From Chiloscyllium plagiosum (lineage: Eukaryota): a stretch of 44,512 bases of DNA. The notes beneath the pieces are model-generated. The model had not been told where the DNA came from and ran no database searches. It worked only from the letters and a program-made list of their open reading frames with translations. Positions 3,804 through 44,294 of the stretch are shown here, one piece after another (the stretch's first letter is position 1; the number at the start of each line of letters is the position of its first letter). The DNA is taken from positions 1,028,124 through 1,072,635 of the forward strand of contig NC_057754.1 in assembly GCF_004010195.1 (NCBI RefSeq), read 5' to 3'. The position numbers and the translations under genes are program-made.

Positions 3804-3992
3804 CATGATTCGGAGATGCCGGTGTTGGACTGGGGTGTACAAAGTTAAAAATCACACAACACCAGGTTATAGTCCAACAGGTTTAATTGGAAGCACACTA
3901 GCTTCATCTGATGAAGGAGCGTCGCTCCGAAAGCTAGTGTGCTTCCAATTAAACCTTTTGGACTATAACCTGGTGTTGTGTGATTTTTAACT
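3804..3992. mobile_element. Short fold-back PLE-derived insert (family B) with a hammerhead motif in the loop
   Basis: 64-bp arms 3841-3904 / 3931-3994 with 1 mismatch; TSD TTGAGAAATGGA at 3792-3803 and 3993-4004. Confidence 0.8.
3905..3939 (+). ncRNA. Minimal type I hammerhead ribozyme motif (family B)
   Basis: CAU-CUGAUGA-A-GGAGC-guc-GCUCC-GAAA-GC-UA-GUG. Confidence 0.7.
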
Positions 3993-4602: not shown

Positions 4603-5032
4603 AGAGTGGCATGATAGCTCAATGGAAACTACTGCCTCTCAGCGCCGGGGAGCCAGCTTCAAATCCAGCCTTGAGTGACATGTTCTCCCTGTGTCTGCGT
4701 GGGTTTCCTCCAGGTGCTCTGGTTTCCTCCCATAATCCAAAAGCGTGCAGGTTAGGAGGACTAGTTATGCTAAATTTCCGAGATTAGGGTGGTGCTGGAA
4801 AAGCACAGCAGGTCAGGCAGCATCCGAGGAGTAGGAAATTAGACGTTTGGGCAAAAGGACCCTTTTGCCTATGCTAAATTACCTACGCTTTCCAGGGATA
4901 TATAGGCTAGGTGGATTAGTCTTGGGAAATACAGGAATAATGTGCAGATCTGGGTGGGATGCTCTTTGGAGGTTTGGCATGGACTCAACGGGCTGAATGG
5001 CCAGCTTCCACATTTTAGGGATTCTATGATTC
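4603..5032 (+). mobile_element. HE1-like V-SINE interrupted by a family A PLE insert (4777-4869)
   Basis: V-domain tgtgtctgcgtgggtttcctccaggtgctctggtttcctccca; insert flanked by TATGCTAAATT at 4766-4776 and 4870-4880. Confidence 0.8.
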
Positions 5033-5304: not shown

Positions 5305-6210
5305 AATTTAAAGGTAGAAGACAGAGGGTGGTGGAGGAGGGTTGTTTTTCAGACTGGAGGCCTGTGACCAGTGGAGGATAGGCGCTGGGTCCTCTACTTT
5401 TTGTCATTTACATAAATGATTTGGTGTGAGCATAAGAGATATAGTTAGTAAGTTTGCAGATGACACCAAAATTGGAGGTGTAGTGGACAGTGAAGAAGGT
5501 TACCTCAGATTACAACAAGATCTTGATCAGATGGGCTGTTTGGCTGAGAAGTGGCAGATGGAGTTTAATTCAGATAGTGAAGAAGGTGTTTGGTATGCTT
5601 TCCTTTATTGGTCAGAGTATGGAGTACAGGAGTTGGGAGGTCATGTTGCGGCTGTACAGGACATTGGTTAGGCAACAGTTGCAATATTGCATGCAATTCT
5701 GGTCTCCTTCCTATCGCAAAGATGTTGTGAAACTTGAAAGGGTTCAGAAAAGATTTACAAGGATGTTGCCAGGGTTGGAGGATTTGAGCTATAGGGAGAG
5801 GCTGAATAGGCTGGGGCGTTTTTCCCTGGAGCACCGGAGGCTGAGGGGTGACCGTATAGAGGTTTACAAAATTATGAGGGGCATGGATAGGATAAATAGA
5901 CAAAGTCTTTTCCCTGGGGTTGAGGAGTCCGGAACTAGAGGGTATAGGTTTGGGGTGAGAGGGGAAAGATATAAGAGACCTAAGGGGCAACATTTTCACA
6001 CAGACGGTGGTACGTGTATGGAATGAGCTGCCAGAGGAAGTGGTGGAAGTGGGTACAATTGCAACATTTAAAAGGCATTTGGATGGGTATATGAATAGGA
6101 AGGGTTTGGAGGGATATGGGCCGGGTGCTGGCAGGTGGGACTAGATTGGGTCGGCATGGACGGGTTGGACCGAAGGGTCTGTTTCCATGATGTACATCTC
6201 TATGATCTAT
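5305..6210 (+). mobile_element. HER1/CR1-like LINE 3' fragment
   Basis: [65 protein letters not shown] and the family 3' tail. Confidence 0.92.
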
Positions 6211-6677
6211 AAATACTTTGCACACAGCGAACAGTTAGGCTTTGGAACAGTCTGCCTGGAGGTGGAGTGAAGGGCAGGATCAATTGAGGCATTCGAGAGA
6301 AGGCACTGGATAATTATTCGAACAGAGATGGACGGGCAAGGGTACTGGCAAGAAGCAGCAGGATATCAGCAGTAAGCAATGGTTTCAAGAGCTGGTGCAG
6401 GCACCATGGTCTGCACAGCCTCATGCCTCCATAGCACTTCCTTGATCAGAATGCAGATAAAGGATGTAATCTCTGAGCAGATAGATGTGACGAATATAGA
6501 GGGTAGCTAGCAGGTGCATGTAGAGTGGAAGGTTGGAAATATGGATAATAATCGTAAAATGCAGTTGGGTGACATCAACATGAAGCAAAATTTCTTTAAA
6601 AAGCTAGTGCTCCCCTGCACAGCAGAGTTCTTATAGTTAGAGAGATATATATAATAAAATATGGCTATGCATGATTG

Positions 6678-8320: not shown

Positions 8321-11300
8321 TTACGTGTATCTTTTTCTTTGCTCCTGGGTCTGTCTGCCCGCCCCACCCTGGTAGAAAGTCCTGTTTTTTTTTATTCTCT
8401 GAATTCCGTTACCTCTGGGCATGTTTAGACTGTCTAGCGATCACTCCAGTGTCCTTGGGCTGATGAGAGTATGCAAAACATTGCTTTTTTTATTTTGCAG
8501 AAAAATGCATGTATTTTAACATCTGTAGCTTTATTCTCTCCCCAGTTTTTTTTTGCAAGATCTGGGCTCAGCCTGCAGAATTGCAGGGCGCCCTCCCGCA
8601 GCATTTAGCTGCACTCGCCTTCCATGCACACATCTTTAAAAAGAGGAAAACGACATTTTGTGACTGCTTCGAGGAGTTGGGTTTCAGTTAGGTGGGGTTT
8701 TGAGCTCACCTCAGTGAGACTTCGACTCTTCTCCTCTTGTGTTAAGAGCTGCCCAGATGTATCTCTGGGAATTTGGCGTAGCCAGTTGGTTTAAAAATGT
8801 GTTGCTGGAAAAGCGCAGCAGGTCAGACAGCATCTAAGGAGAATCGACGTTTCGGGCATAAGCCCTTCTTCAGGAATGGGAGTTCCTGAAGAAGGGCTTA
8901 TGCCCGAAACGTCGATTCTCCTTAGATGCTGTCTGACCTGCTGCGCTTTTCCAGCAACACATTTTTAAGCTCTGATCCCCAGCATCTGCAGTCCTCACTT
9001 TCTCTTAGCCAGTTGGTTCCCTATTCCTACCCTCCCCCAACAAAATAAAGCTCCCAGCTAACGAATTCTGATGCTTGCAGGATCTGTGTTTGGAGACTTT
9101 TGTCATTGGGGATGGTGATGGGACATGATTGACTGACTGGTTTTAAAATGGCTTTGGAGGAGGGGGGGAGGGAGAAAGAGAGAGAGAGGAGTAGTGGATT
9201 GCGCTCATATCTGTGCAGCCTAGTGGATTAGGGTTTGTGGGCACACAATGTGGTAAGGGTGTGGAGGTGAATAGAGGTTAATGTTTTCCTATGGCAGTAT
9301 CTAGGGTGCAGCAGAGTCCCGTGATCATCGGCAGTGCCTTTGATTAAAATTGAGCTCTTTTTGTTTTGAGCATCTGCTCGGTTTCCAGTGTAGCAGGCTG
9401 ACTTGATGTTCCACATCATCCTCCTGGATTTGCTGCCTTTTTTTCGTTTATGTAGAGATGCGTTGAAGAGTTGGCGAGGTATCTACAAATGGGTTCAGTC
9501 TCTGAATTGGCCACTTTTTTTTTGAGAAATTCTGGCCTGAATGTTAGACGAGGGGAGTAGGAGGTGTCTACATGGGGATGGTGAGTAAGCAGGGTATTGG
9601 TAGCTAGAGATTTTTTGTCGTTGCAAGCATTTCCTGTTGTGCGGTACTGGCCTCACCCTTTCCCCGTTGTCAGAGCTGCTTATTTAATGTGGGGCCAGGT
9701 CTGATTAGGCAAGAATCTAACTTTTTAAAACCTTCAGTGGAAATAACCCACATTCACTCTTGTGAAAGTGCTGTTTCCCTTCAGTTCTGCAAAGGCACTT
9801 AGTCACTTGATTAGTTTCTTTTTTTAAAAAAAACAGAAGTTACCTACTGAATACTTTGTAGAGGTTTGACGAGCACAGTCAGGGTGTCTGCACTGTTGTT
9901 GGAAAAATCAAAGTTTGTCTATGAATCGTGAGTTCTGAAATGCAGTGAAATTGAAACTTCAGCTGAAGTGTCAAATACTTTGCCTAATAAGGTCATTCTT
10001 AAAGCACTGAGTTGCCAAGTGAGATGTATTCATTGTTGGGTTTGACCTGCTTGAAGCCAGTTCCCCATTTCCTGGCCTTGCAATCGGTCCCTGTCGCAGT
10101 TTATTTATGCCCATGTCTGGGGTGGGAGAGTGGGCAGTGAAACCTGTTTATCTGCCTTTTAGTCTGTTCTATCTTGGAAAGAGTGCAACTGGCTAAAGTG
10201 GACAAGAATTATCAAGCTGTGCTCAGTTATTCCATTTAGTTGGCAATTTTCCTCAGTGGAGGGCTCTCAATGGGCATCCATCTGGCACCCAAAACTGCTT
10301 TCCTTGAATTCAGTCTGAGTTCCAAACCTCAACTCTCCTTTGATCTTCCATTGATTTGTGTGGAATCCATTAATTGGTTGTTTTTCTGTTGAGGAAGAAC
10401 TCTATTTTGCAGCCTCTTGTGGATTTAGGGGAGAATACCTAATAAATCTGCCCTCCACATCCTGTACCAAAGAAAATGAATCAAGCCATCCACTCTTCCT
10501 TCATTGCTGAAATTATCTATAAATCTCATCTGCACCATCTCCAGCGTGATCACAGCCTTCCTGTAATGATATATGACAATCCGTGTCTGTACTGGTGAAT
10601 GCAATAACATGCAAGAAATTTCCACCTGTCTTCCTGCCTCCCTTTGGCTGATCCCAGCTGTGAGCTGAATCAATTTGTTCAATCATGTTTCCACTTGTTG
10701 ATAGAAGTTCCAAACCTCCAGCTTGCATCCAGGAGAGTGCTGCATTCCTGAGCTGCTGCTGTGCCTGCGGGGGGAAAGTGAACGTGTATGGTCTGCTGAA
10801 GCTGAAAACAAGACTACACCAGCTTGTAGTCCCAACAGGTGGTTGTGAAGCAGGACCGTAAGAGACAGAAGCTGGGACAGTGATGGAGTGGAGTGGTGGG
10901 GTGGGAAGGAAGATGAAAAAGTCAAAAGGGGTAGTGTTGAGTTGGAATGTTGGATCTGGGATAAGGTTGGGGAGAGGGGAGATTGAATCGGTGTGATTGG
11001 AGGGTCCCAAGGCGGAAGCTGAGGTGTTCTTCCTCCCAGATGTCGAGTGACTACGACCTGTAGTGGAGGAGGTCCAGGGGTTGCATATCCTTGACAGAGT
11101 GGGAGGTGGGAGTTAGTGTTCACCAGTTTCCTAATTTCCCCCCCACTAACTTTTCCCAGATCCAACCTTCCAACTCTGTACTGCCCTCTTGAACTGTCCT
11201 ATCTGTCCATCTTCCTTCCCACCTATCAGCTCCACCCTCCTCAGATGCTACCTGACTGGCTGTGCTCTTTCAGCACCATACACTTATTCTTGTCATGCCT

Positions 11301-24000: not shown

Positions 24001-27000
24001 CCAATGTTCCCAAACCAGATAAAGCAGAGGAGATTGGAATGTAATCTTCAGCGACATCTGTGGAGAGATGAGAGGGAGCAGACAAGCCAGGGTGAGACAC
24101 AAACAGGCCCTTAGCTCCCATTGCCAGATACAGTTCAGAGGTTGTAAAGATCATAGTGCGAGTGAGCCACAGAACATAGTCTTCCCCCAGTCTGCCACTC
24201 ACTGTTCACAAATAACCTTCAGAGCAACACTGAGTCTCAGTTCTACACGAGTGTACAGCACCCTACCAGTGTGACCACAAGACAGGGATAAGGCAGACCC
24301 TGCTTGATTGGCACCACACCCACTCCCTCCCCCCTCTGACGCTCAGTAGCAGCAGTGTGTACCATCTACAAGTTGCACTGTAGAAACTCAGAAGACCCTC
24401 AGGCAGCACCTTCCAAACCTAATTGATATTAGTGTCAAGCTTTTTTGTGGGGGAACGGGGGTGTTGCCTGATTAATCTAGAAGTGAAAATCTAGAACGCA
24501 CACCCCTACCCTCACCACCTCCTACCCCTAACCACCCTGTTGCAGAAGCTGTAGTGGGACAGGCTCAGAGGATCTGACAAATGGCCTCCTGTATAACAAG
24601 GAAATAAAGAGAAAAAAAAACACTCTTTCCAAGAGGGAGTCTGGAGTGAGGGGAGGTCAGAGCCCACAGATGATAAAACAGCTGAGGGAGGGCTGTTAGT
24701 GTACACGCGCAGCTTGGCGTTATAATACCAGAAAGTATTCAGGACAGCAGAGATCCTGGGAGTGAGTGAGCGAGCGAATGAGTGAGTGACTCCAGAGAAC
24801 CCACTTTTGTGTGAGCGGGTCTTTCTATCCGCCTTCAGCGTCGCATCCTTGACCCGATTGTGATACTCGATGAGGAAGGTCCTCTCGTGCTCAAAGAACT
24901 CGTCCACTTCCTGCAGGAGAAAGAGGATAAACGTTAGCGCGGTCTGTCAGAGCATTCAGGAAAAACTAGATCATCCCCTCAGGTACTCGAATGAACACAG
25001 GGGAGACCATAGGGGGCAAGGACTAAATCGCCAGGATAATGGGCCATGTGTCCTGGGAGTGTTTGATGGGATAAAACAGTGTAGTACTCTGTACCTGTTT
25101 GATGGGAGTGAAAAGAGAAAAATGTAAAAGGAAATTTAAACATTTTTGTTTTCGTTTCTCATTTCCAGCATCAGCAGTTATTTCCAGTTTTTTGTTCAAG
25201 GGAATTTACTTTCAGTTTACAAAGAGGGGAGAGGGAGAGTTATTGTGTTCAACATTTACAGATACTCTCTACAAGAAGTGATATATTAACTGAGCGGAGT
25301 TGCTGAGTTGGTTTCTCCAATATAAAAAGGAAAGATTGTGACAAGGTCAGATGTACCTTCATGCCAGAGATGCCAGTTATTATTGCTTCATCAGCGGTCT
25401 TCACAATGTTCTTTAGAAAACCACCCAGGATCTCCTTCCTATTCTTACCACGGACGCTCAGCTGTGGTTTAAACAAAGATTAAAAAAAAAAAAATCAGAG
25501 TTCAGGTTTTCCAGCTCATTTCCCCATCTCAGGGCACCCCAAAGTTTCACATCCAACAGAGGACTCTTTGGAGAGCACTCCCTGTTGTAAACTAGCAAAG
25601 CAGACACACACACCAATGGGAGTGAACCAGATCAGCTGGTTTTATTTGGTGGATGTCAGTTTCCTTCCCTAAAGGACATTAGTGAACTTGATGGGCTTTC
25701 CCCCAACCAAAACAATGAGATGCTTAATTCCAGACTTATTTTTAAAGAAAAAAAAAGATAATCCAAACTCCATCTTCCATAGCAGGATTCAAACTTGGGT
25801 CCCCAGACTGTTATCAGGGGATCTGGATCAACAGTCCATCGATTACACCATTGGACCGTTACTGGTCAGTGTGATGTTGGATCAAGGATTCCTACCCCAA
25901 GCTCAGTGGTGCTTACTCATTGCTGAGCCCACATCACCCTGAGCAGAGCTGTGCTACTTCAGTGCTGACCCTCATGACCTTGGAGGAGACAGAGCTTCCT
26001 AGAATCAGAATCCCTCATGTGGAAGCAGGCCATTTGGCCCATCAAGTCCATAACAACCGCCCCCCTCTACACTGCAACTTAGCATGGCTCATTCACCTAA
26101 CCTGCACATCTCTGTATTGTGGGAGGAAATCCACACAGACATGGGGGGGAAGAATGTGCAGAGTTTGCACACTCCGCAAGAGGGTGGAATTGAACCTGGG
26201 TCCCTGGCACTGTGAGGCAGCAGTGTTAACCACTGAGCATCCTCCTGGTTGGCACGATGCCTGATTGGAGGGGCTATGGGTAAAAAAGACAGGCAGAACA
26301 ATCCTGGGGAGTGGGAGGGAAAGGTGTACACCGCAGTGAGGGAACAGTTCTGTAAACCTGGGTTCGATGACAGCAGCAACGATGGAGGAATTAGTGAGGG
26401 AGATGTTGACCCCCCCCCACTCCCCAGCCAGGAAGCAGTTAGACCTACCTCCTGATCATACTCCAGAAATACGTAGAAATTGTGGTCCCCCCTTAGCTGC
26501 GGGTGAGCAGCAAGACGTTGCAGGAAGACCTCGTGCATGGCTACCGTCTTTTTAAAGATGGCCAGGTACTCCCTGTGAGGAGACAGGCAGAGAGAAAAAG
26601 ACAATAATTAGACAGAGTGCACGACAGAGCGAGGAAATAAAGGGTTTCGGGAGGAAAGAAAAAAAAAAGTCTTTAGCCAGAGAGCAGGGTGGAGGCTGAA
26701 CTCACTCACACGAAAGAGAATGGTCGAGGTGAATTGTGTCGGTAAAATAAGGCAAAAACTCAGCAAACTCACTAGGGCCATTGGGATGGAACGAGTGTGA
26801 GGGGAGGTTTGGGGAGATGATCAAGCAGGTGGAAGGTGGCAGCACGTGGGGAGTAAGAACAGCCGCTGCTGGGCTGAAGGGCCTCCTGCAAGAGGACATA
26901 GAATTGCTCCAGCACAGAAAGAGGCCATTCAGCTGACAGAATCTGTACTGACCCTCCAGTGGGCATCCTACCCAGATCCAGCCTTTCACCTTACCTGCAG

Positions 27001-30000
27001 ATCGCCACGTTATCATGACAAAATGGCCCTAGCCTGCGTATTCCTAGACTCTCAGGAATTCCCAAGAGGAGCATATTCGCATTTGGATATTTAGATGTGG
27101 GAAGGCCCCAAAGTTGGTTAGGCCACTTTTGGAATATTGTGTGCAATTCTGGTCTCCCTCTTATTGGAAAGATGTTGTGAAACTTGAAAGGATTCAGAAA
27201 AAATTTACAAAGATGTTGCCAGGATTGGAGGATCTGAGCTACAGGGAGAGGCTGAACAGGCTGGGGCTGTTTTCCCTGGAGCGTTGGAGGCTGAGGGGTG
27301 ACCTTATAGAGGTTTACAAAATTATGAGGGACATGGATAGGATAAATAGACAAAGTCTTTTCCCTGGGGTTGGGGAGTCCAGAACTAGAGGGCATAGGTT
27401 TGGGGAGAGAGGGGAAAAATATAAAAAGGGACCCAAGGGGCAACTTTTTTCCCCCAGAGGGTGGTACGTGTATGGAATGAGCTGCCAGAGGAAGTGGTGG
27501 AGGCTGGTACAATTGCAACATTTAAGAGGCATTTGGATGGGTATATGAATAGGAAGGGTTTGGAGGGATATGGGCCGGGTGCTGGCAGGTGGGACTAGAT
27601 TGGGTTGGGATACCTGGTCGGCATGGACAGGTTGGACCGAAGGGTCTGTTTCCATGCTGTACATCTCTAATGACTCCAATAGGTTAACACAAGAGGCTGC
27701 GGACAGGTAGGGGCCAGGGTGCGAGTGAGAGTCTATGAGAGGGTCAGCCCCAGAGAGTCACCCCCACCCCAGTCACTTACGATTCCAGCTCTTGCTTCAT
27801 CTTAGCAAACTCCTCCCGCGTCATGGACCCATCCCCCTCCCCAAGTTTCTGCAGTTTCTCCCGCGACGCGTCAAAGTTTGGTTTTGGAGGGGCAGGAGGA
27901 ATCTGGGGGGGGAAAAAAAAAACAAAACAATGTTTCAGTTGTTCAGGTGACAGCAAAGGAGACGCTGTCTTTCAGTGCATGGCGACTACTGGAAGGTGGC
28001 AGAATTCTCTGTCCATTGTACACAGGGCGATCCCAACTTCCTTCCAGCAGTGTGCCAATCACCCAGACAGACACTGCTCACGAAAGGCATTAGCCCCAGA
28101 GACAACCCCTCCATCCATAGACTGCCCCACTTCACTACCATAGGGTATAGGCAGCACTGGCCGGGTCAGCATTTGTTGCCTTTTCCCAACGGCCCAGAGG
28201 GCATTAAAGAGTTATCCACATAGCTGGGGGTCTGGAGACATGTACAGGCCACACCAGGTAAAGATGTCAGATATCCTTCCTTGAAGGACATTAGTGACCC
28301 AGATGGTTTCCACAACATGTGATGATGGGCTCATGGTCACTTAACTCCTCAAGGCAGGATTTATTTTCTGCCGTCACAGCATTCAAACTCCAGGTCTCTG
28401 GATTAACATCTACTGAAAATACCATTAGGCCGACACCTCACCCTACAGTGGGAGCTTTCCTCTGTATCCAACGCTGCGCTGTCCCTGTCCTAGCAGGGAG
28501 GGAGTGTAGAGGGAGCTTTCCTCTGTATCTAACCCTGTGCTGTCCCTGTCCTGGGAGTGTTTGATGGGGGACAGTGTAGAGGGAGCTTTACTCTGTATCT
28601 AACCCTGTCCTGGGATCTGTTGGATGTTAGACAGTGTAGGGGGAAGCTTTACTCTGTATCTAATCCAGTGCAGTCCCTGTCCTGGCAGTGGGACAGCGTA
28701 GATTAGATTCGATTCCCTACAGCATGGAAACAGGCCCTTCGGCCCAACAAGTCCACACCGACCCTCCGGAGTAACCCATCTAGACCCATTTCCCGCTGAC
28801 TAATGCACCTAATACTATGGGACCATTTAGCATGACCAATTCACCTAACCTGCACATCTTTGGACTGTGGGAGGAAACCGGAGCACCCGGAGGAAACCCA
28901 CGCAGACATGGGGAGAACGTGCAAACTTCACAAAGACACCCAAGGCTGGAATCGAACCTGGGACCCTGGTGCTGAGAGACAGCAGGGCTAACCACTGAGC
29001 TGCCTTGCCGTGTAAAAGGAAGCTTTACTCAGTATCCAACACTGTGCTGTCCCCTCACTGGGAACAGCACATACAGAGAACCAACAACATTTGAGCCCGC
29101 TGTATCTGGTGCAAGCTCCTGGCAGTCGCTCACTTACTATAATCCCAGCGTAATCCTCATTTTCCAAATACGCGTCATGAAGCCATATGAACTCTTCATG
29201 TTGCCGTACCACTGAGAACTCCGGCTGCTTGAAGTGAGCAAGATTCGTCTGAGACGGAGAGAGGGAGGAGAGAAATTAGTGCTGCCAAATGTGACACAAA
29301 GCAAGATCCCACATGCAGCAACATGGGAATGACCCTAAACATGTTGGTGGAGAAATGACATTGGCTCCAGAGAGAGAACCCTCCCCCACCCAGTGTGAGG
29401 CTCCAGTAATGGAGCCTGAAGGTGTCAATCTGTATCAAACTTTACCCAAGGCCAGAGGGCTCGGCCCTCAGACACTGTGGGGACCTGGGCCACCTACCCA
29501 GTCTTCCCCTTTGTACCTACCTTGGTGTGGACTGTAAATTTCACTTTGTCTCTCTCACTGACTGCATCAGAGATCTCCACTTGCAGTGAGGAATCTGTCT
29601 GTAGATCCACCGACATGGTCCTTGACTGTACAGAACAAAAACACACCGGAGACCCACATGGTCATTCTAAAAGATGACAGCAGACCTAAACAATCCTGGT
29701 CTTTCTCAGTGTATAATTTCAATTGCATCACACTAGAAACTTTTGCTATAAATTGGGTCTTACAATCTTATACTCCACAACCACCTGATGAAGGAGCAGC
29801 AGTCCGAAAGCTAGTGTTCCAAATAAATCTGTTGGACTATAACCTGGTATATAGTGTAGTGTAATTTTTAAAGGAGAAAAAGTGAGGGCTGCAGATGCTG
29901 GAGATCAGAGCTGAAAATATATGTTGCTGGAAAAGCGCAGCAGGTCAGGCAGCATCCAAGGAGCAGGAGACTCGACGTTTCTGGCGTAAGCCTGAAGGGC

Positions 30001-33000
30001 TCATGCCCAATACATCGGTTCTCCTGCTCCTTGGATGCTGCCTGACCTGCTGCGCCTTTCCAGCAACCCATTTCCAGCTAGTAGACACACACAGACAATG
30101 TATCTAACCCCATTCTATCCCTGTCCTGGGAGTGTTTCATTGGTGGGGGTACAGTGTAGAGTGAGCTTTACTCTGGATCGAACCCACCCTACATGAATAG
30201 CCGAGGTATGGAGGGATTATGGGAGTCAGCAGGAGGCAGCTGGGACTAGTTTAGTTTGGGGTTTAAATGGTCAGCATGGACTGGTTGGGCCGAAGGGTCT
30301 GTTTAATGTGCTGTGTGACTGTACACCTGGTGACTGCCGCCCAGGGGTCAAACAGGGTGCGGATGCGGTTAGGAAGGCATTGAGGTGACACTCCTGTCTG
30401 ACCAACACCCCCAACTCTCACGTGCAGATATTCAGGCACACAGTCCACCCCAGCTCACACATTTTTGCCACACCTACCCCCTCCCTTTCACACCCCTCCC
30501 CCCCAGTAGTTAAAAAAAAAAAAAGGAGAGTGATGTGGATTACCAGAGAACCTCTAGAGTGCACAAACCAAAAAAAACAAACATTCCCAGTCAGTGTCCT
30601 TTATCCTCACTGAACACAACCTCATCAATACTCTCTTCCGAAGATACAGAAGCTTAAAACACCAACAGGTTCAGGAACAGCTTCTTCCCTGCTGTTATCA
30701 GGCTGCTGAACCCCCAGACCTCTCTCTAACGTTGATCTCCCTCACCCACCCTGTACAGCTGTAACCCTGTAGGTTTCACTTTGTCCAAGTGCCCCACCAT
30801 CCATATGCCCTTATCTGCCTGTACTGCTCACTTTTCACTGTACACAGGACTACAGTAAATCTCTGCTCTCTCATTCACCAACCCACAGGTGAGACTGTAA
30901 TCACGGGCCAAACTCTAATGGCTTCCACAGATTGATGTAGTTAATCCTGTCCCAGGACATGGGCGGCTGCTGAGGTGGAGGATTTGTTGCCCGCCCCCAA
31001 TTGCCCCTCCACTATTTGGGAGGGCAGTCAAGAGGCAACCACATTGCTGCGACTCCATGCTCATGAAAGCCAGACTGGCTAATCTGTCCTCCCTAAAAAA
31101 AGGAAAAAAGGGCCCTGGGGACCCTGGTTAAAAACCAATAAAGGTTGTTATAATCACCATCACTGGCTTTCCATTCCAAATCTGACTGTTAAGATGTTCA
31201 CCATTACATTCCACCAACTGCCTGTAGCAGGATTTGAACTCTATATTCCTGTTAAACGGTGACGGGGCTTCCATGTTGGCCTGGTGGCTATTCACTGTAG
31301 GTCCTTTGCAGGGATGGGGTGTAGATGAGTCACAACATCCATCTGGCACTTGACATTTTGCCCCAAGAGTGTGCCAAGTCTCAGATGAACCAGTAGGGGT
31401 AAAACTAAAATAAAATGTGCCTCAGCGTTGAGAGAGAGAGAAGGAAAACAAAAGTTGAGCAGCTGTGGGCTCTACATACAACATCTTTGCTCTGATCAAA
31501 TCTCTGCTCACTTCATTGTTCTACTCTGTCAATAGAAGTTGTGATGTTTTGGTTTTTCCATCACAGAACATTAGCAGTTTATAGAGTCATTAGAGATGTA
31601 CAGCATGGAAACAGACCCTTCGGTCCAACCCGTCCATGCTGACCCAGATATCCCAACCCAATCTAGTCCCACCTGCCAGCACCCGGCCCATATCCCTCCA
31701 AACCCTTCCTATTCGTATACCCATCCAAATGCCTCTTAAATGTTGCAATTGTACCAGCCTCCACTTCCTCTGGCAGCTCATTCCATACACGTACCACCCT
31801 CTGCGTGAAAACATTGCCCCTTAGGTCCCTTTCCCCTCTCACCCTGAACCTATCCCCTTCAGTTCTGGACTCCCCAATCCCAGGGAAAAGACTTTGTCTA
31901 TTTTTCTTATCCATGATATATTTCCAAGTCAGGATGGGGGGGGGGGGGGCAAAAAATGGGGGGAGCTCCCAAACCCTTGTCCCTCTAGACTGGAGTGGCC
32001 GTGGGTTTGAAAGGTGCTGTCTGAGGACCCTTGTTGAATCTCCGCGGTACACCCTGCAGAAGGCGCACATTGCCACCACCAAACGTAGTGGGGGAGGGAG
32101 ATGACTTTATAAAATAATTAAATGTACATCACTGGTTGCCCGAACATTTATTGCCCATTCCTATTTGCCCCTCCAGAAGTAGGGGATTAATGATATGCCT
32201 TTTTTGATCTGCTGCAGTCCATGGGGTGTACAGACACCAGAGGGTTATAAGGGCAAGAGGTGCGGGATTTCAACTGTGAAAGAATAGCGATATATTTCCA
32301 AGTCAGGATGGGGAGTGGCTTGGAGGGAGGCTTGCAGGGGATGGGGCTCCCATGTATAGAATGGGATTGTTTTATATTTAGAACCCCTACAGTGTGGGAA
32401 CAGGCCCTTCGAACCAACTAATCCACACGAACCTTCCGAAGAATACCCCCGCCCCCCCAATCATTATCTATTACTCAATTTCCTGATGAAGGGCTTTTGC
32501 CCGAAACGTCGATTTTACTGTTCCTCGGATGCTGCCTGAACTGCTGTGCTCTTCCAGCACCACTAATCCAGAATCTATTACTCTATATTTATCCTGGAAG
32601 CAAACCCAGGTCCCTGACGCTGAGGCAACACTGCTGCCCTTGTCCTTCTAGATGGAAGTGGTCATGGGTTTGGAAACTGACATCTGAGGAGCCTCAGCAT
32701 ATTGCATCTCTCTCTAATGTAGGGCAGCTACCTAGGTACATCAGTCTTTTAGGTGAGTGCAGACCAAGAACTGGGTTACTCACAACCTATGGTTCCAGAT
32801 TCCGCAAATTAACCCCTACAACATCCCTCCCTGTCCCCCACATCTTTTTTTAAAAAAGGCTGTCAATTGTTCAGTCTCTTGAGCTAAAGAACAACAAAAA
32901 AGGAAAAGAAATTCTAATTAACTCAACACTTAGGATCTGAAAAATGTGGGAAAGGAAAGGAGACAGAGAGAAAAGCAGCAAAAACCAAAAACAGCATTTT

Positions 33001-34269: not shown

Positions 34270-34845
34270 TCCCGACGAGGGGCGCGACCCCTCTTGTACC
34301 AACGCACGCCTCGTCGGCAGCCCGCCGTACCCCGCTCGGATTGGCCCTTACCCCGCGACGGCCACCGCCCTCGGTTCCGGTTGGTCCGGCACCGCGTCCA
34401 TCAGACAAATCCCACCCACTCCTTAAAGCGGACCCGCGACCAACGGAGATCAGCCGAAAGCGTTTGCTTTTTCTTTCCTTTTACTTTCGCCCCCCGAATG
34501 TCTTCCTGATTTTTGTTAAAAAAAAGAGTAAGCGGTTTCATTTACTTTCACGCTACTTCGGTACTTGAGACGTCGGGGCAGAGGGGGGGGGAAGGTAGAG
34601 GAGTAAGATCATATGATATCTGCTTTTATGTATCTCCTCAATAAACAGGTTGCTGAGGAGCAGCTCACAGATAAAAGAAGAACATTAGTTCATTTTCTCA
34701 GTTGGGGGACCTGGAGTTTGTTTTGCTTCTGACGGAGAGAAGTTTCCAGATTGAGCCCGCGGCTCCTTTAAGAGCGTCCGGTCACATGACCTTCGGGGAA
34801 AGGGCGGGAGATCGACAGGAGCTTCGCGGAGCCGGAAGTGCAACT
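34270..34845 (-). promoter_or_regulatory. SNX32 CpG-rich promoter and 5' region: GGTCACATGACC 34780-34791, GC box 34802-34808, ETS/GABPA CCGGAAGTG 34832-34840
   Basis: CpG-rich stretch immediately upstream of the SNX32 start codon; motifs read directly. Confidence 0.7.
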
Positions 34846-34910
34846 AATGTCATTGACCCTTATTCTTCCATCAATAACCCAACCCCTCATTAAATACCCC
34901 TCAATCTCCC

Positions 34911-36140
34911 TTAAATACCCTATATCCCCATTAAATACCCTATATCCCCATTAAATACCCTATATCCCCATTAAATACCCTATATCCCCATTAAATACCC
35001 TATATCCCCATTAAATACCCTATATCCCCATTAAATACCCTATATCCCCATTAAATACCCTATATCCCCATTAAATACCCTATATCCCCATTAAATACCC
35101 TATATCCCCATTAAATACCCTATATCCCCATTAAATACCCTATATCCCCATTAAATACCCTATATCCCCATTAAATACCCTATATCCCCATTAAATACCC
35201 TATATCCCCATTAAATACCCTATATCCCCATTAAATACCCTATATCCCCATTAAATACCCTATATCCCCATTAAATACCCTATATCCCCATTAAATACCC
35301 TATATCCCCATTAAATACCCTATATCCCCATTAAATACCCTATATCCCCATTAAATACCCTATATCCCCATTAAATACCCTATATCCCCATTAAATACCC
35401 TATATCCCCATTAAATACCCTATATCCCCATTAAATACCCTATATCCCCATTAAATACCCTATATCCCCATTAAATACCCTATATCCCCATTAAATACCC
35501 TATATCCCCATTAAATACCCTATATCCCCATTAAATACCCTATATCCCCATTAAATACCCTATATCCCCATTAAATACCCTATATCCCCATTAAATACCC
35601 TATATCCCCATTAAATACCCTATATCCCCATTAAATACCCTATATCCCCATTAAATACCCTATATCCCCATCAAATATCCTTTATCCCCATTAAATACCC
35701 TATATCCCCATTAAATACCCTAAATCCCCATTAAATACCCTAAACCCTCATCAAATTCCCTAAACCCTCATCAAATATCCTTTATCCCCATTAAATACCC
35801 TATATCCCCATCAAATACCCTATATCCCCATTAAATACCCTATATCCCCATCAAATTCCCTATATCCCCATTAAATACCCTATATCCCCATTAAATTCCC
35901 TAAACCCTCATCAAATACCCTATATCCCCATCAAATTCCCTAAATCCCCATTAAATACCCTATATCCCCATTAAATTTCCTAAACCCTCATCAAATACCC
36001 TATATCCCCATCAAATTCCCTAAACCCCCATCAAATACCCTATATCATCATCAAATTCCCTAAACCCTCATCAAATACCCTATATCCTCATCAAATTCCC
36101 TAAACCCTCATCAAATACCCTATATCCTCATCAAATGCCC
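34911..36140. repeat. 20-bp tandem satellite TTAAATACCCTATATCCCCA: 38 perfect copies (34911-35670), then variant units
   Basis: Read directly; degenerate continuation at about 36340-36450, 37725-38310 and 39640-40105. Confidence 0.97.
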
Positions 36141-36457: not shown

Positions 36458-37725
36458 ATCAGTGCTGCATCCACTGCTTTTCGTCATTTATATAAATGAT
36501 TTGGATGTGAACATAGGAGGTATAATTAATAAGTTTGCAGATGACATCAAAATTGGAGGTGTAGTGGACAGCGAAGAAGGTTATCTCAGAGTACAATGGG
36601 ATCTTGATCAGATGGGGCCAATGGGCTGAGAAGTGGCAGATGGGATTTAGTTTAGATAAATATGAGGTGCCCAGGCAAATCAGGGCCACACTTATACACT
36701 TAATGGTAAGGTCCTGGGGAGTGTTACTGAACAAAGACACCTTGGAATGCAGGTTTGTTTTTTTGTTGAAAGCCAAGTTTCAGCTGGAGAGGAGTGGGAA
36801 GAAGGCATTTGGTATGCTTGCCTTTATTGGTCAGAGCACTGAGTGTAGAAGTTGGTGGGTCATGTTGCAGCTGTACAGGATGTTGCTGAGGCCACTTTTG
36901 GAATATTGTGTGAAATTCTGACCTCCCACAGGAAGAATGTTATGAAACTTGAAAAGGTTTAGAAAGATTTACAAGGATGTTGCCAGAGTTGGAAGATGTG
37001 AGCTGTAGGGGAGGCTGAATAGGCTGGGGATGTTTTCCCTGGAGTATCAGAGGCTGAGGGGTGACCTTATAGGGGTTTATAAAATCATGAGGGGCATGGA
37101 TAGGATAAATAGACAAGGTCTTTTCCACAGGGTTGGGGGAGCCTAAAACTAGCGCGCATTGGCTTAGGGTGAGAACGGAAAGATTTAAAAGGGACCTAGA
37201 GGCAATTCTGTTCGCAAAGGATGGTGTGTGTGTGGAATGAACTGACTAGATTAGATCACTTACAGTGTGGAAACAGACCCTTTGGCCCAACACGTCCACA
37301 CCGACCCGCAATCCACCCATACCCCTACATTTGCCCCTTACCTAACACTACGGGCAATTTAGCATGGCCAATTCACCTGACCTGCGCATCTTTGGACTGT
37401 GGGAGGAAACCGGAGCACCCGGAGGAAACCCGCGCAGACACGGGGAGAATGTGCAAACTCCACACAGTCAGTCACCTGAGGTGGGAATTGAACCCGGGTC
37501 TCTGGCGCTGTGAGGCAGCAGTGCTAACCGCTGTGCCACCGACAGTGGAGGCTGGTTCAATGATAACATTTAACAGGCATCTGGATGGGGACATGAATAG
37601 GAAGGGTTTAGAGGGATATGGGCCAAGTGCTGGCAAATGGGATTAGATTAGGTTAGGATATCTGGTCGGCGTGGATGAGTTGGAGCCAAGTGTTTGTTTC
37701 TGTGCCGTACATCTCTATGACTCTA
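36458..37725 (+). mobile_element. HER1/CR1-like LINE fragment containing an antisense HE1 SINE (37246-37541)
   Basis: KFADDIKIGG, LYRMLLRPLLEYC and 3' tail; the SINE splits the VWNEL/VEAG region. Confidence 0.9.
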
Positions 37726-40194: not shown

Positions 40195-40740
40195 ATATAG
40201 AGTCATACAACTGTACAGCACGGAAATAGACCCTTCAGTCCAACTCATCCATGCTGACCAGATATCCTAATCTAATCTAGTCTCATTTGCCAGCACTTGG
40301 CCCATATCCCTTTAAATTCCTGATGAAGGGCTCTGGCCTGAAACGTCGATTCTCCTGCTCCTTGGATGCTGCCTGACCTGCTGTGCTTTTCCAGCAACAC
40401 ACTCTCAACCCATATCCCTCCAAACCCTTCCTATTCATATACCCATCCAGATGCCTTTTAAATGCTGTAGTTATACCAGCCTCCACCACTTCCTCTGGCA
40501 GCTCATTGCACACACACATCAGCCTCTGCATGAAAAAGTTGCCCCTGGGGTCCCTTTTACATCTTTCCTCTCTCATCCTAAACCAATGCACTCTAGTTTT
40601 GGACTCTCCAACGCCTGGGAAAAAAACTTTATCCATTCATCCTATCCATGCCCCTGATGATTTTATAAACCTCTATAAGGTCACCCCTCAGCCTCTGAAG
40701 GTGCAGTGAAAATAGCCCCAGCCTATTCAGCCTCTCCCTT
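40195..40740 (-). mobile_element. HER1/CR1-like LINE 3' fragment with a nested family A insert (40312-40408)
   Basis: TSD CCCATATCCCT at 40301-40311 and 40409-40419; hammerhead core CTGATGA at 40320-40326. Confidence 0.88.
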
Positions 40741-41289: not shown

Positions 41290-42320
41290 TGTCATTGAAA
41301 TAAATGATTTGGGTGGGAATAAAGAAGGCATGGTTCGTAAGTTTGCAGACGACACCAGGACTGATGGCATAGTATACAGTGAAGAAGGGTTTCTAAGATT
41401 ACAAAGGGATCTTGATCAAATGAGTCAATGGACTGAAAAATGGTAAATGGAGTTCAATCTGGATAAATGTGAGGTGTTGCATTTTGGTCCAATAAACAAG
41501 GGCAGGGCTTTTTATGGTGGGGCCTTGGCTGGTGGTGTATGACAGAGGGATCTGGGGGTTCAGGTACATAATGCTTTGAAGTTTGCATCACATATAGACA
41601 GGAGGGTTAAGAAGGCATTTGGCACACTTACTCAGACCTTTGAGTACAGGGGATTGGGAACATCATGTTGGGGTTGTACAGGACATTGGTGTGGCCTCGT
41701 CTGGAATACCGTGCCCAGTTCTGGTCTCCCTGTTACAGGAAGGTTATTATTAAGCTGGAGAGGGTTCAGAAGAGATTTACCAGGATGTTGCTGGGAACGG
41801 AAGATTCAAGTTATAAAGAAAGGCTTGATAGGCTGGGACTTTTTTAACTGGAGTGTCGGAGGTTAAGAGGTGACCTTACAGAGGTTTATAAAACCATGGG
41901 GGGGCATGGATAGGGTTAATGGTAGTTGTCTGTTCCCTAGGGTGGGGGATTTCAAGAGTAGGGAACACATTTTTAAGGTGAGAGGGGAGAGAGATTTAAG
42001 AGAGACATGAGGGGCAAATCTTTTACCCAGAGGGTTGTTCGTGTGTGGAGTGAACTTCCTGAGGGAGTGGTGGGTGTGGGTCCATTTGGATAAGGACCTG
42101 GATAGGAAAGGACTGGAGGGAGATGGGCCAGGAGCAGGCAGCTGGGGCTAGTTTATGATTTGGAGATGCTGGTGTTGGACTGGGGTGTAAAAGTTAAAAA
42201 TCACACAACACCAGGTTATAGTCCAACAGCACTAGCTTTCGGAGTGACGCTCCTTCATCAGGTGGTTGTGGAGGACTGGTTGGGCTGAAGGGTCTGTTTC
42301 CGTGCTGTATGACTTTAAGT
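41290..42320 (+). mobile_element. HER1/CR1-like LINE fragment with a nested family B insert (about 42155-42275; hammerhead on - at 42230-42264)
   Basis: KFADDT, LYRTLVWPRLEY; minus strand CAC-CUGAUGA-A-GGAG-cguca-CUCC-GAAA-GC-UA-GUG. Confidence 0.87.
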
Positions 42321-43224: not shown

Positions 43225-43436
43225 CATGATTTGGAGATGCTGGTGTTGGACTGGGGTTGTCAAAGTTAAAAATCACACAACACCAGGTTATAGTCCAACA
43301 GATTTATTTGGAAGCACACTAGCTTTTGAAATGCCGCACCTTCATCAGGTGGGTGTGGAGGAGCAGCGCTCTCAAAGCTAGTGCTTCCAATTAAACCTGT
43401 TGGACTATGACCTGGTGTTGTGTGATTTTTAACTTT
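43225..43436. mobile_element. Family B fold-back insert with decayed hammerheads
   Basis: Arms about 43262-43326 / 43374-43436; degenerate TSD tcttctacctgt / tcttctgccttt. Confidence 0.78.
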
Positions 43437-43624: not shown

Positions 43625-44290
43625 CATGAGCAAAGAGACCTTGGAGTGCAGGTTCATAGCTCCTTGAAAGTGGAGTCGCAGGTAGATAGGATAGTGAAGA
43701 AGGCGTTTGGTATGCTTTCCTTTATTGGTCAGAGTATTGAGTACAGGAGTTGGGAGGTCATATTGCAGCTGTATAGGACATTGGTTAGGCCACTGTTGGA
43801 ATATTGCATGCAATTCTTGTCTCCTTCCTATCGGAAAGATGTTATGAAACATGAAAGGGTTCATAAAAGATTTACAAGGATGTTGCCTGGGTTGGAGGAG
43901 GCTGTTTTCCTTGGAGCGCTGAGGCTGAGGGGTGACCTTATATAGGTTCATGAGGCGCTTGGATAAATAGACAAAGTCTTTTCCTTGCGGTGGAGGAGTC
44001 CAGAACTCGAGGGTATAGCTTTAGGATAAGAGGGGAAAGATATAAAAGAGATCTAAGGGGCAATTTTTTCACACAGAGGATGGTATGTGTATGGAATGAG
44101 CTGCCAGAGGGAGTGGTGGAGGCTGGTACAATTACAACATTTAAAAGGCATCTGGATGGGTACATGAATGGGAAAGGTTTGGAGGGATATGGGCCGGGTG
44201 CTGGCAGGTGGGACTAGATTGAGTTGGGATATCTGGTCGGCATGGACGGGTTAGACTGAAGGGTCTGTTTTCATGCTGTACATCTCTGTC
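43625..44290 (+). mobile_element. HER1/CR1-like LINE 3' fragment
   Basis: EQRDLGVQVHSSLKVESQVDRIVKKAFGML... plus tail. Confidence 0.92.
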
Positions 44291-44294
44291 AGAT

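Follow-up and report, generated by a model that had tools for sequence, protein, structure and literature searches.

Minimal hammerhead ribozymes (HHRs) with a palindromic stem III are a published trait of the terminal repeats of Penelope-like elements (PLEs). In metazoan PLEs these motifs carry a conserved unpaired base between positions 9 and 10.1, a G10.1-C11.1 pair and a palindrome at 15.2/16.2; most of them are single, probably derived from truncated PLEs, and activity is described as absent in monomers and low in dimers (Cervera and de la Pena 2014, PMC4209133), in a paper where the word ‘shark’ does not occur. A CX2-5CxxC linker in front of the GIY-YIG domain defines the Neptune and Nematis types (PMC8557442), and PLE insertions have been described with an inverted truncated copy and a 30-40-bp tail (PMC8557442; PMC3846280), as well as with inverted pLTRs, 8-10-bp TSDs and solo pLTRs (PMC3846280). 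For Poseidon of Anolis carolinensis (PAc), reverse transcription starts internally at two sites, which explains the tail, uncut RNA is the main substrate, and the hammerhead is protein-assisted (PMC11167929). Retrozymes, for their part, are defined as tandem HHR repeats (bioRxiv 10.64898/2026.07.22.740005).

We analysed a stretch of 44,512 nt of the Chiloscyllium plagiosum genome (contig NC_057754.1, positions 1,028,124 to 1,072,635; hereafter the window) around a 96-bp insert containing such a motif. With considerable confidence, we regard this insert as a 5'-truncated pLTR copy of an abundant Neptune-type PLE, and its insertion as the likely work of the RT/GIY-YIG protein of that element, acting by target-primed reverse transcription on uncut element RNA. 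The motif shares with the PLE minimal hammerheads of PMC4209133 the extra A, the palindromic stem III, the weak stem I and the location in a pLTR, whereas its stem II has 4 bp against the 7-8 bp of the Schistosoma families covered there. The parent resembles the EN+ PLEs of Neptune (or Nematis) type in PMC8557442 in having a single ORF with RT, Cys-rich linker and C-terminal GIY-YIG, and likewise shows partial-tandem pLTRs, heavy 5' truncation, an inverted truncated copy and an optional tail of about 35 bp; its copy number is very high by comparison (roughly 6e5 pLTR pieces). With PAc it shares two fixed 3' end classes (tailed and tail-less), a hammerhead near the ORF start and insertions that would come from uncut RNA. 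PAc, however, belongs to the Penelope/Poseidon clade and has an ORF that starts at stem II, while here about 150 nt separate the hammerhead core from the first in-frame ATG downstream of it. PLE pLTRs with such motifs were known already, as was the status of most genomic motifs as truncated leftovers, so that this is an ordinary ribozyme finding. What we add is that the truncated copies, or stubs, often begin just ahead of the motif, a position that may mark the start of the element's RNA.

The insert and its sister loci

The insert (32477-32572) is bounded by the 11-bp TSD ATCTATTACTC, an 11-mer found twice in the window; a sequence-only reading of this DNA had noted both the insert and an 11-bp TSD. 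We count offsets from C3 of CUGAUGA (window position 32483 = 0), and the predicted cut falls between +27 and +28.

32466..32476, plus strand: left TSD copy, 11 bp, read from the sequence
32477..32479, plus strand: AAT at the 5' junction, unlike the TSD and unlike the parent element; alignment with long copies begins at offset -3
32480..32572, plus strand: pLTR stub assigned to a Neptune-type PLE, offsets -3 to +89, with the short, tail-less 3' end
32483..32510, plus strand: minimal type I hammerhead, read from the sequence: CUGAUGA and an unpaired A, a stem II of 4 bp with the loop uuuu, then GAAA and the palindrome ACGU; cleavage predicted after C32510
32573..32583, plus strand: right TSD copy

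The core CUGAUGA-A-GGGC-uuuu-GCCC-GAAA-CG-UC is present as that reading had described it, with the extra A, the 4-bp stem II and ACGU, and so are the predicted cleavage site after GUC at 32510 and the weak stem I, in which UC/GA is followed by a U-U mismatch. The insert does not begin with CUGAUGA as had been stated, since the core starts at 32483 and is preceded by six nucleotides, the unmatched AAT and then TTC. From 32480 to 32572 the insert is 99% identical to the 3' end of an EN-linked copy (L013). The first 4 nt of the right TSD copy (ATCT) are identical to parent offsets +90 to +93, a possible priming microhomology.

The four loci that had been listed as sister copies are all related to the insert (81-87% identical), but 8791-9005 and 29872-30080 are head-to-head two-armed structures rather than simple sisters, and 4777-4869 and 29872-30080 lack an intact core. 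A full core is present in three of the five loci, namely 32477, 8791 (in both arms) and 40312 (with a G-U pair in stem II), and three of the four sister loci have a TSD; at 29872-30080 we looked for one and found none. To this list we add a rearranged piece at 10933..11278.

4777..4869, minus strand: related stub that starts inside the core (about +6), without CUGAUGA and without an intact hammerhead; 11-bp TSD 4766-4776 / 4870-4880
8791..9005: older-subfamily stub with two arms set head to head, each with an intact core, tail on the right arm and absent from the left; 12-13-bp TSD
10933..11278: older, rearranged fragment of this type of PLE, with an EN C-terminal fragment on the minus strand (11104-10979; tblastn E 1e-7) and a 3' UTR/pLTR fragment on the plus strand (blastn 76%)
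29872..30080: decayed two-armed stub adjoining a family B copy; left arm tailed and starting at about +9, right arm decayed, core truncated or decayed in both arms
40312..40408, plus strand: older-subfamily stub with its 5' end at offset -4 and an intact core with G-U in stem II; 11-bp TSD 40301-40311 / 40409-40419

The 40312 stub sits inside a piece of the dispersed, putatively CR1/L2-like repeat described below.

The parent element

A DNA search of the genome (3.56 Gb) returned 801 candidates, and the 40 that were scored are 98-100% identical across nearly the whole insert. Among the 29 best other copies, 21 run at least 14 nt upstream, into the pyrimidine-rich 3' UTR of the element or into unread sequence, and 8 start at -8..-2; 18 have a long 3' end (about +125, with an optional tail) and 11 a short one (about +90). 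A same-strand ORF piece lies upstream in 10 of these 29. This ORF encodes a Cys linker followed by a GIY-YIG domain (PF01541, E 3e-4, 21.3 bits against a curated cut-off of 22.6), and the linker, C-x3/4-C-x2-C (as CHHRNCKTC or CHRRNCKTC), fits CX2-5CxxC. The GIY-YIG piece alone gave 158,809 first-look candidates in the genome.

In one copy (L067) an RT lies in frame before the GIY-YIG domain, with stops, and is followed by UTR, motif and tail. The RT match is weak (PF00078, E 4e-3, below the curated cut-off), an Atlas comparison gives 0.96 to PF26215/PF00078 clusters, and a PDB sequence search with the RT piece gave no match. At most of 20 loci around RT matches the motif follows on the same strand after 1.2-2.1 kb, and the 5' ends of these loci form a ladder of truncations within the RT. 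In L152 two motifs on one strand are spaced by 3890 bp, which points to an element of about 3.9 kb with a pLTR at both ends. Near-full copies, found by walking 5', also carry the motif ahead of the ORF N-terminus, and two of them (L151 and L153) are partial tandems. None of the copies examined has an uninterrupted ORF (L155, for example, carries frameshifts and stops). In the 5' pLTR of three near-full copies (L140, L132 and L148) the frame of the ORF is open for about 55-60 codons ahead of the first ATG, through the hammerhead.

By the features tested, the parent is an EN+ PLE of about 3.9 kb with RT, a Zn-finger-like linker and GIY-YIG, and the linker motif, rather than a tree, would place it in the Neptune/Nematis type. 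The pLTR sequence at both ends of a PLE ORF, together with the 11-bp TSD, bears out the proposed link to a PLE and insertion by retrotransposition with the insert's own TSD. Young copies are nested in or beside older copies of the same PLE type at three loci (L067, L103 and L153).

Abundance and ends of the pLTR pieces

Our genome sample consists of 10-kb stretches taken at 120 round-number positions along large contigs (1,152,934 bases), a choice that was blind though not strictly random. It contains 199 pLTR pieces, or 173 per Mb (bootstrap 144-204), with the arms of a pair counted singly and some weak pieces perhaps belonging to related families; if the sample is representative, this density underlies the rough genome total given above, and the high copy number that had been suspected is evident. 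An opposite-strand partner lies within 700 bp for 81 of the 199 pieces. Their 3' ends are bimodal, at about +75..+95 and +120..+129. A clear TSD (at least 8 nt, exact) flanks 9 of 35 solo stubs, against 7 of 1190 controls.

Conservation and predicted folding of the hammerhead

Over the 1,152,934 sampled bases a descriptor of the core and stem II matched 79 times, whereas 20 shuffles yielded 69 matches in total, which places the motif far above chance. Features that the descriptor left out, namely the palindrome, UH and a stem I of 2 bp, jointly accompany 29/79 genomic matches and 0/69 shuffled ones, with the reservation that related copies are not independent events. An Rfam scan at E<=10 gave 12 matches, among which no hammerhead family appeared; the miRNA and SRP matches in that scan were set aside as fold-back artefacts of two-armed copies. 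The motif has the core CUGANGA ... GAAA ... UH with stem II closed by G10.1-C11.1, and an extra nucleotide between 9 and 10.1 is present in 78/82 descriptor matches (an A in 67), although the descriptor tried the extra-base form first. The 15.2/16.2 palindrome is ACGU in family A, to which the insert belongs, and AGCU in family B, and the ACGU self-duplex is predicted at -3.1 kcal/mol. Core, extra nucleotide, palindrome and pLTR location all agree with the earlier call of a minimal hammerhead of the PLE kind, here of type I. We take it to be likely self-cutting, though its activity is uncertain, as that reading also held. Nearest-neighbour folding favors other structures, but this model ignores tertiary contacts and so gives no verdict on the hammerhead; a comparison with copy L019 was set aside on account of a stem II change in that copy. 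The monomer has an MFE of -11.9, with the core paired with the cut site, against -7.2 for the imposed hammerhead, and the dimer has an imposed value of -13.3 against an MFE of -29.3.

We compared majority letters among four descriptor-defined families over all loci (A, 150 matches; B, 23; C, 9; D, 10). From A to D, the first pair of stem I is C-G, C-G, U-A and A-U and the second U-A, A-U, U-A and C-G, and stem II has four different sequences in these four families. Positions 15.2/16.2 are CG in A and GC in B, and look CpG-decayed in C and D. Stem covariation is seen between families only; stem II hardly varies within family A, and the covariation anticipated across its copies did not materialize.

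For family A we counted mismatches in the 106 of 199 pieces with an alignment spanning the core, a filter that favors intact cores. Outside CpG sites, mismatches number 43/1050 for the core, compared with 311/4215 downstream of it and 85/518 for loop II/N7. The CpG base of the core is mutated as often as other CpGs (22/102 against 45/204), and 58/106 cores are intact. Few core mismatches combined with ordinary CpG decay would fit a hammerhead that is selected in master elements and decays neutrally once inserted.

Stub 5' ends cluster ahead of the core

Because older subfamilies diverge upstream of -4 from a single young reference, we mapped 5' ends against subfamily-matched long partners. Such a close partner was available for 83 of the 199 pieces, of which 9 with a junction at an edge or in unread sequence were dropped, leaving 74; positions are uncertain by 2-3 nt, and paired arms are not independent. 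Within -60..+30, 29 of 63 5' ends fall at -5..-1, where 3.5 would be expected under uniformity, and solo copies alone place 11 of 25 there (p 3e-8). Public reads and contigs also contain ends at -4 beyond which the sequence varies, as well as junctions that lead from ORF positions back to -4/-5, with one to -14. An Inr-like YYATTCC sits at this 5' edge, is kept across subfamilies and coincides with the 5' strand of stem I. Our search of openly accessible main texts turned up no paper about this PLE family, and none reporting that 5' ends gather at the front edge of the hammerhead.

We take run-off at the 5' end of the RNA to be the likeliest cause of the cluster at -5..-1. Its main competitor, which retains substantial if minority weight with us, keeps the same parent PLE and would attribute the cluster not to an RNA end but to the self-complementary TTC...GAA patch, where the RT or second-strand repair might pause or fold back. 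The patch at the front of the core is indeed self-complementary in sequence, two-armed junctions fall at -9..+13 with overlapping arms, and palindromic junctions have been read as self-priming in PMC3846280. A fold-back, however, does not account well for solo copies, which without any inverted arm show the same cluster at -5..-2 (11/25), nor for tandem junctions from ORF or UTR positions, which also fall at -3..-5 (L140, and public reads and contigs).

Other signs of an RNA start were sought. Inspection of 5' junctions by eye for a cap-derived extra G revealed no consistent pattern. Long copies have no AG at -4, and we therefore rejected an intron with its 3' end there, the arrangement in Drosophila virilis. 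One public run (X22) gave no matching reads. In a poly(A) single-cell run (X21, a coded organism and maybe another species), about 1000 reads in both orientations show no pile-up of starts or ends, and 96% of the reads continue into unrelated sequence, a pattern that fits read-through of host transcripts and makes the run unsuited to mapping a start site or a short circular RNA. For D. virilis Penelope, the start site is placed upstream of an intron whose end coincides with helix I, rather than at helix I itself (PMC2377424; PMC4209133), which calls for caution about the run-off reading.

Under the preferred reading, that of a truncated pLTR copy made from uncut RNA, the PLE protein would nick the target and start copying inside the RNA at about +90. 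The RT would copy back across the hammerhead and stop at about -3/-4, where the template RNA most likely begins (the Inr-like YYATTCC). Second-strand repair would then leave the 11-bp TSD, or the cDNA might fold back at the stop point and give two-armed forms. The hammerhead may be selected only in active master elements, through weak, dimer- or protein-assisted cutting, and would be a passenger in the stub.

We tentatively extend this reading, in a form that we hold to be possible but far from secure, to the proposal that stubs are PLE ‘strong-stop’ products. Starting at its internal site within the mRNA's 5' pLTR, the RT would run off the capped 5' end at YYATTCC, and the cDNA end would be sealed (solo copies), folded back (inverted pLTRs) or transferred to another RNA position (partial tandems). 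If true, this would provide one mechanism for both pLTR regeneration and inversion, a step for which PMC2377424 sees no evident mechanism other than the forming of tandems. The stubs, in their hundreds of thousands, are of use as a fossil record: their fixed 3' ends and sharply clustered 5' ends yield a testable prediction about the start of PLE RNA and the origin of pLTRs and inverted ends.

Stubs as probable pieces of the PLE

The sequence-only reading had seen in these inserts a non-autonomous ribozyme family in its own right, moved by a PLE. Our results do not support this: the insert turns out to be the autonomous element's own pLTR, and the stubs form no clade of their own. Our tree holds 45 stubs and 20 long copies, 65 well-matched pieces in all (window copies included), over only 76 columns, which gives low resolution. 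The stub/long label changes 14 times on it, against 16.6 when labels are shuffled (39 of 500 shuffles are as low), and so the stubs do not make up a single lineage. Stubs and long copies share two sets of identical rows, while one old subfamily comprises 8 stubs and 1 long copy.

That proposal can be recast as a SINE- or retrozyme-like element, pLTR-derived, self-propagating and mobilised in trans by the PLE, which we consider improbable. It would suit the recurrent 5' end and fixed 3' ends of the stubs, their large excess over ORFs, the TSDs that some of them bear, the subfamily that is almost stub-only in our sample and the reported pLTR origin of animal retrozymes (bioRxiv 10.64898/2026.07.22.740005). 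It is opposed by the identity or near-identity of stubs to ORF-linked ends, among which they are mixed on the tree, and by the position of the stub core upstream of its own cut site, a permutation for which the RNA of a cleaved unit would need a circle. Nor were tandem arrays of the stub unit seen in the window repeat listing or the sampled piece tables. With animal non-LTR retrozymes the stubs share a pLTR origin, a type I hammerhead and the lack of an ORF, but retrozymes are tandem HHR arrays whereas the stubs are dispersed, single or head-to-head, and sequence-contiguous with an autonomous element. Neither retrozyme feature that we looked for in this material, tandem arrays or a separate lineage, was found in the stubs.

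That stubs are reverse transcripts of the 3' product of hammerhead cleavage is hardly credible, since the 32477 insert and most stubs hold the whole core upstream of the cut and 5' ends at the cut site (+27..+29), all of them in solo copies and slightly in excess there (3/25, p 0.048 against uniform), make up 3/63 over all copies (p 0.34). With 29 of 63 ends ahead of the core and only these 3 at the cut site, the stubs would derive from uncut RNA.

Other hammerhead families and features of the window

Family B occurs in the window at 3860-3990, 29782-29871, 42194-42264 and 43266-43432, with a GGAGC/GCUCC stem II, the AGCU palindrome and a CAC/GUG stem I; some copies are two-armed, and 2 of 23 have a weak tblastn link to an upstream GIY-YIG piece. 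Family C (at about 41095 in the window, minus strand, reverse-complement index 41417, and at L112, L115, L239, L247 and other loci) has a GGGUC/GACCC stem II and an AGUU/AACU stem I, is older and CpG-decayed, and resembles family A in its downstream part. In family D (L043, L190, L198, L216, L237, L254 and others) the extra base is a U, stem II is longer and stem I reads UCA/UGA.

The window probably overlaps a gene of the sorting nexin 32/5 type, to judge from a match of exon size with that protein's PX domain on the minus strand at 26092-26607 (E 1e-17). A long array of 20-bp tandem repeats lies at about 34750-36100. Another dispersed repeat, which we take to be CR1/L2-like, is represented by many 3' pieces and ORF fragments, at 5420-6214, 27023-27673, 36500-37716, 43664-44292 and elsewhere.
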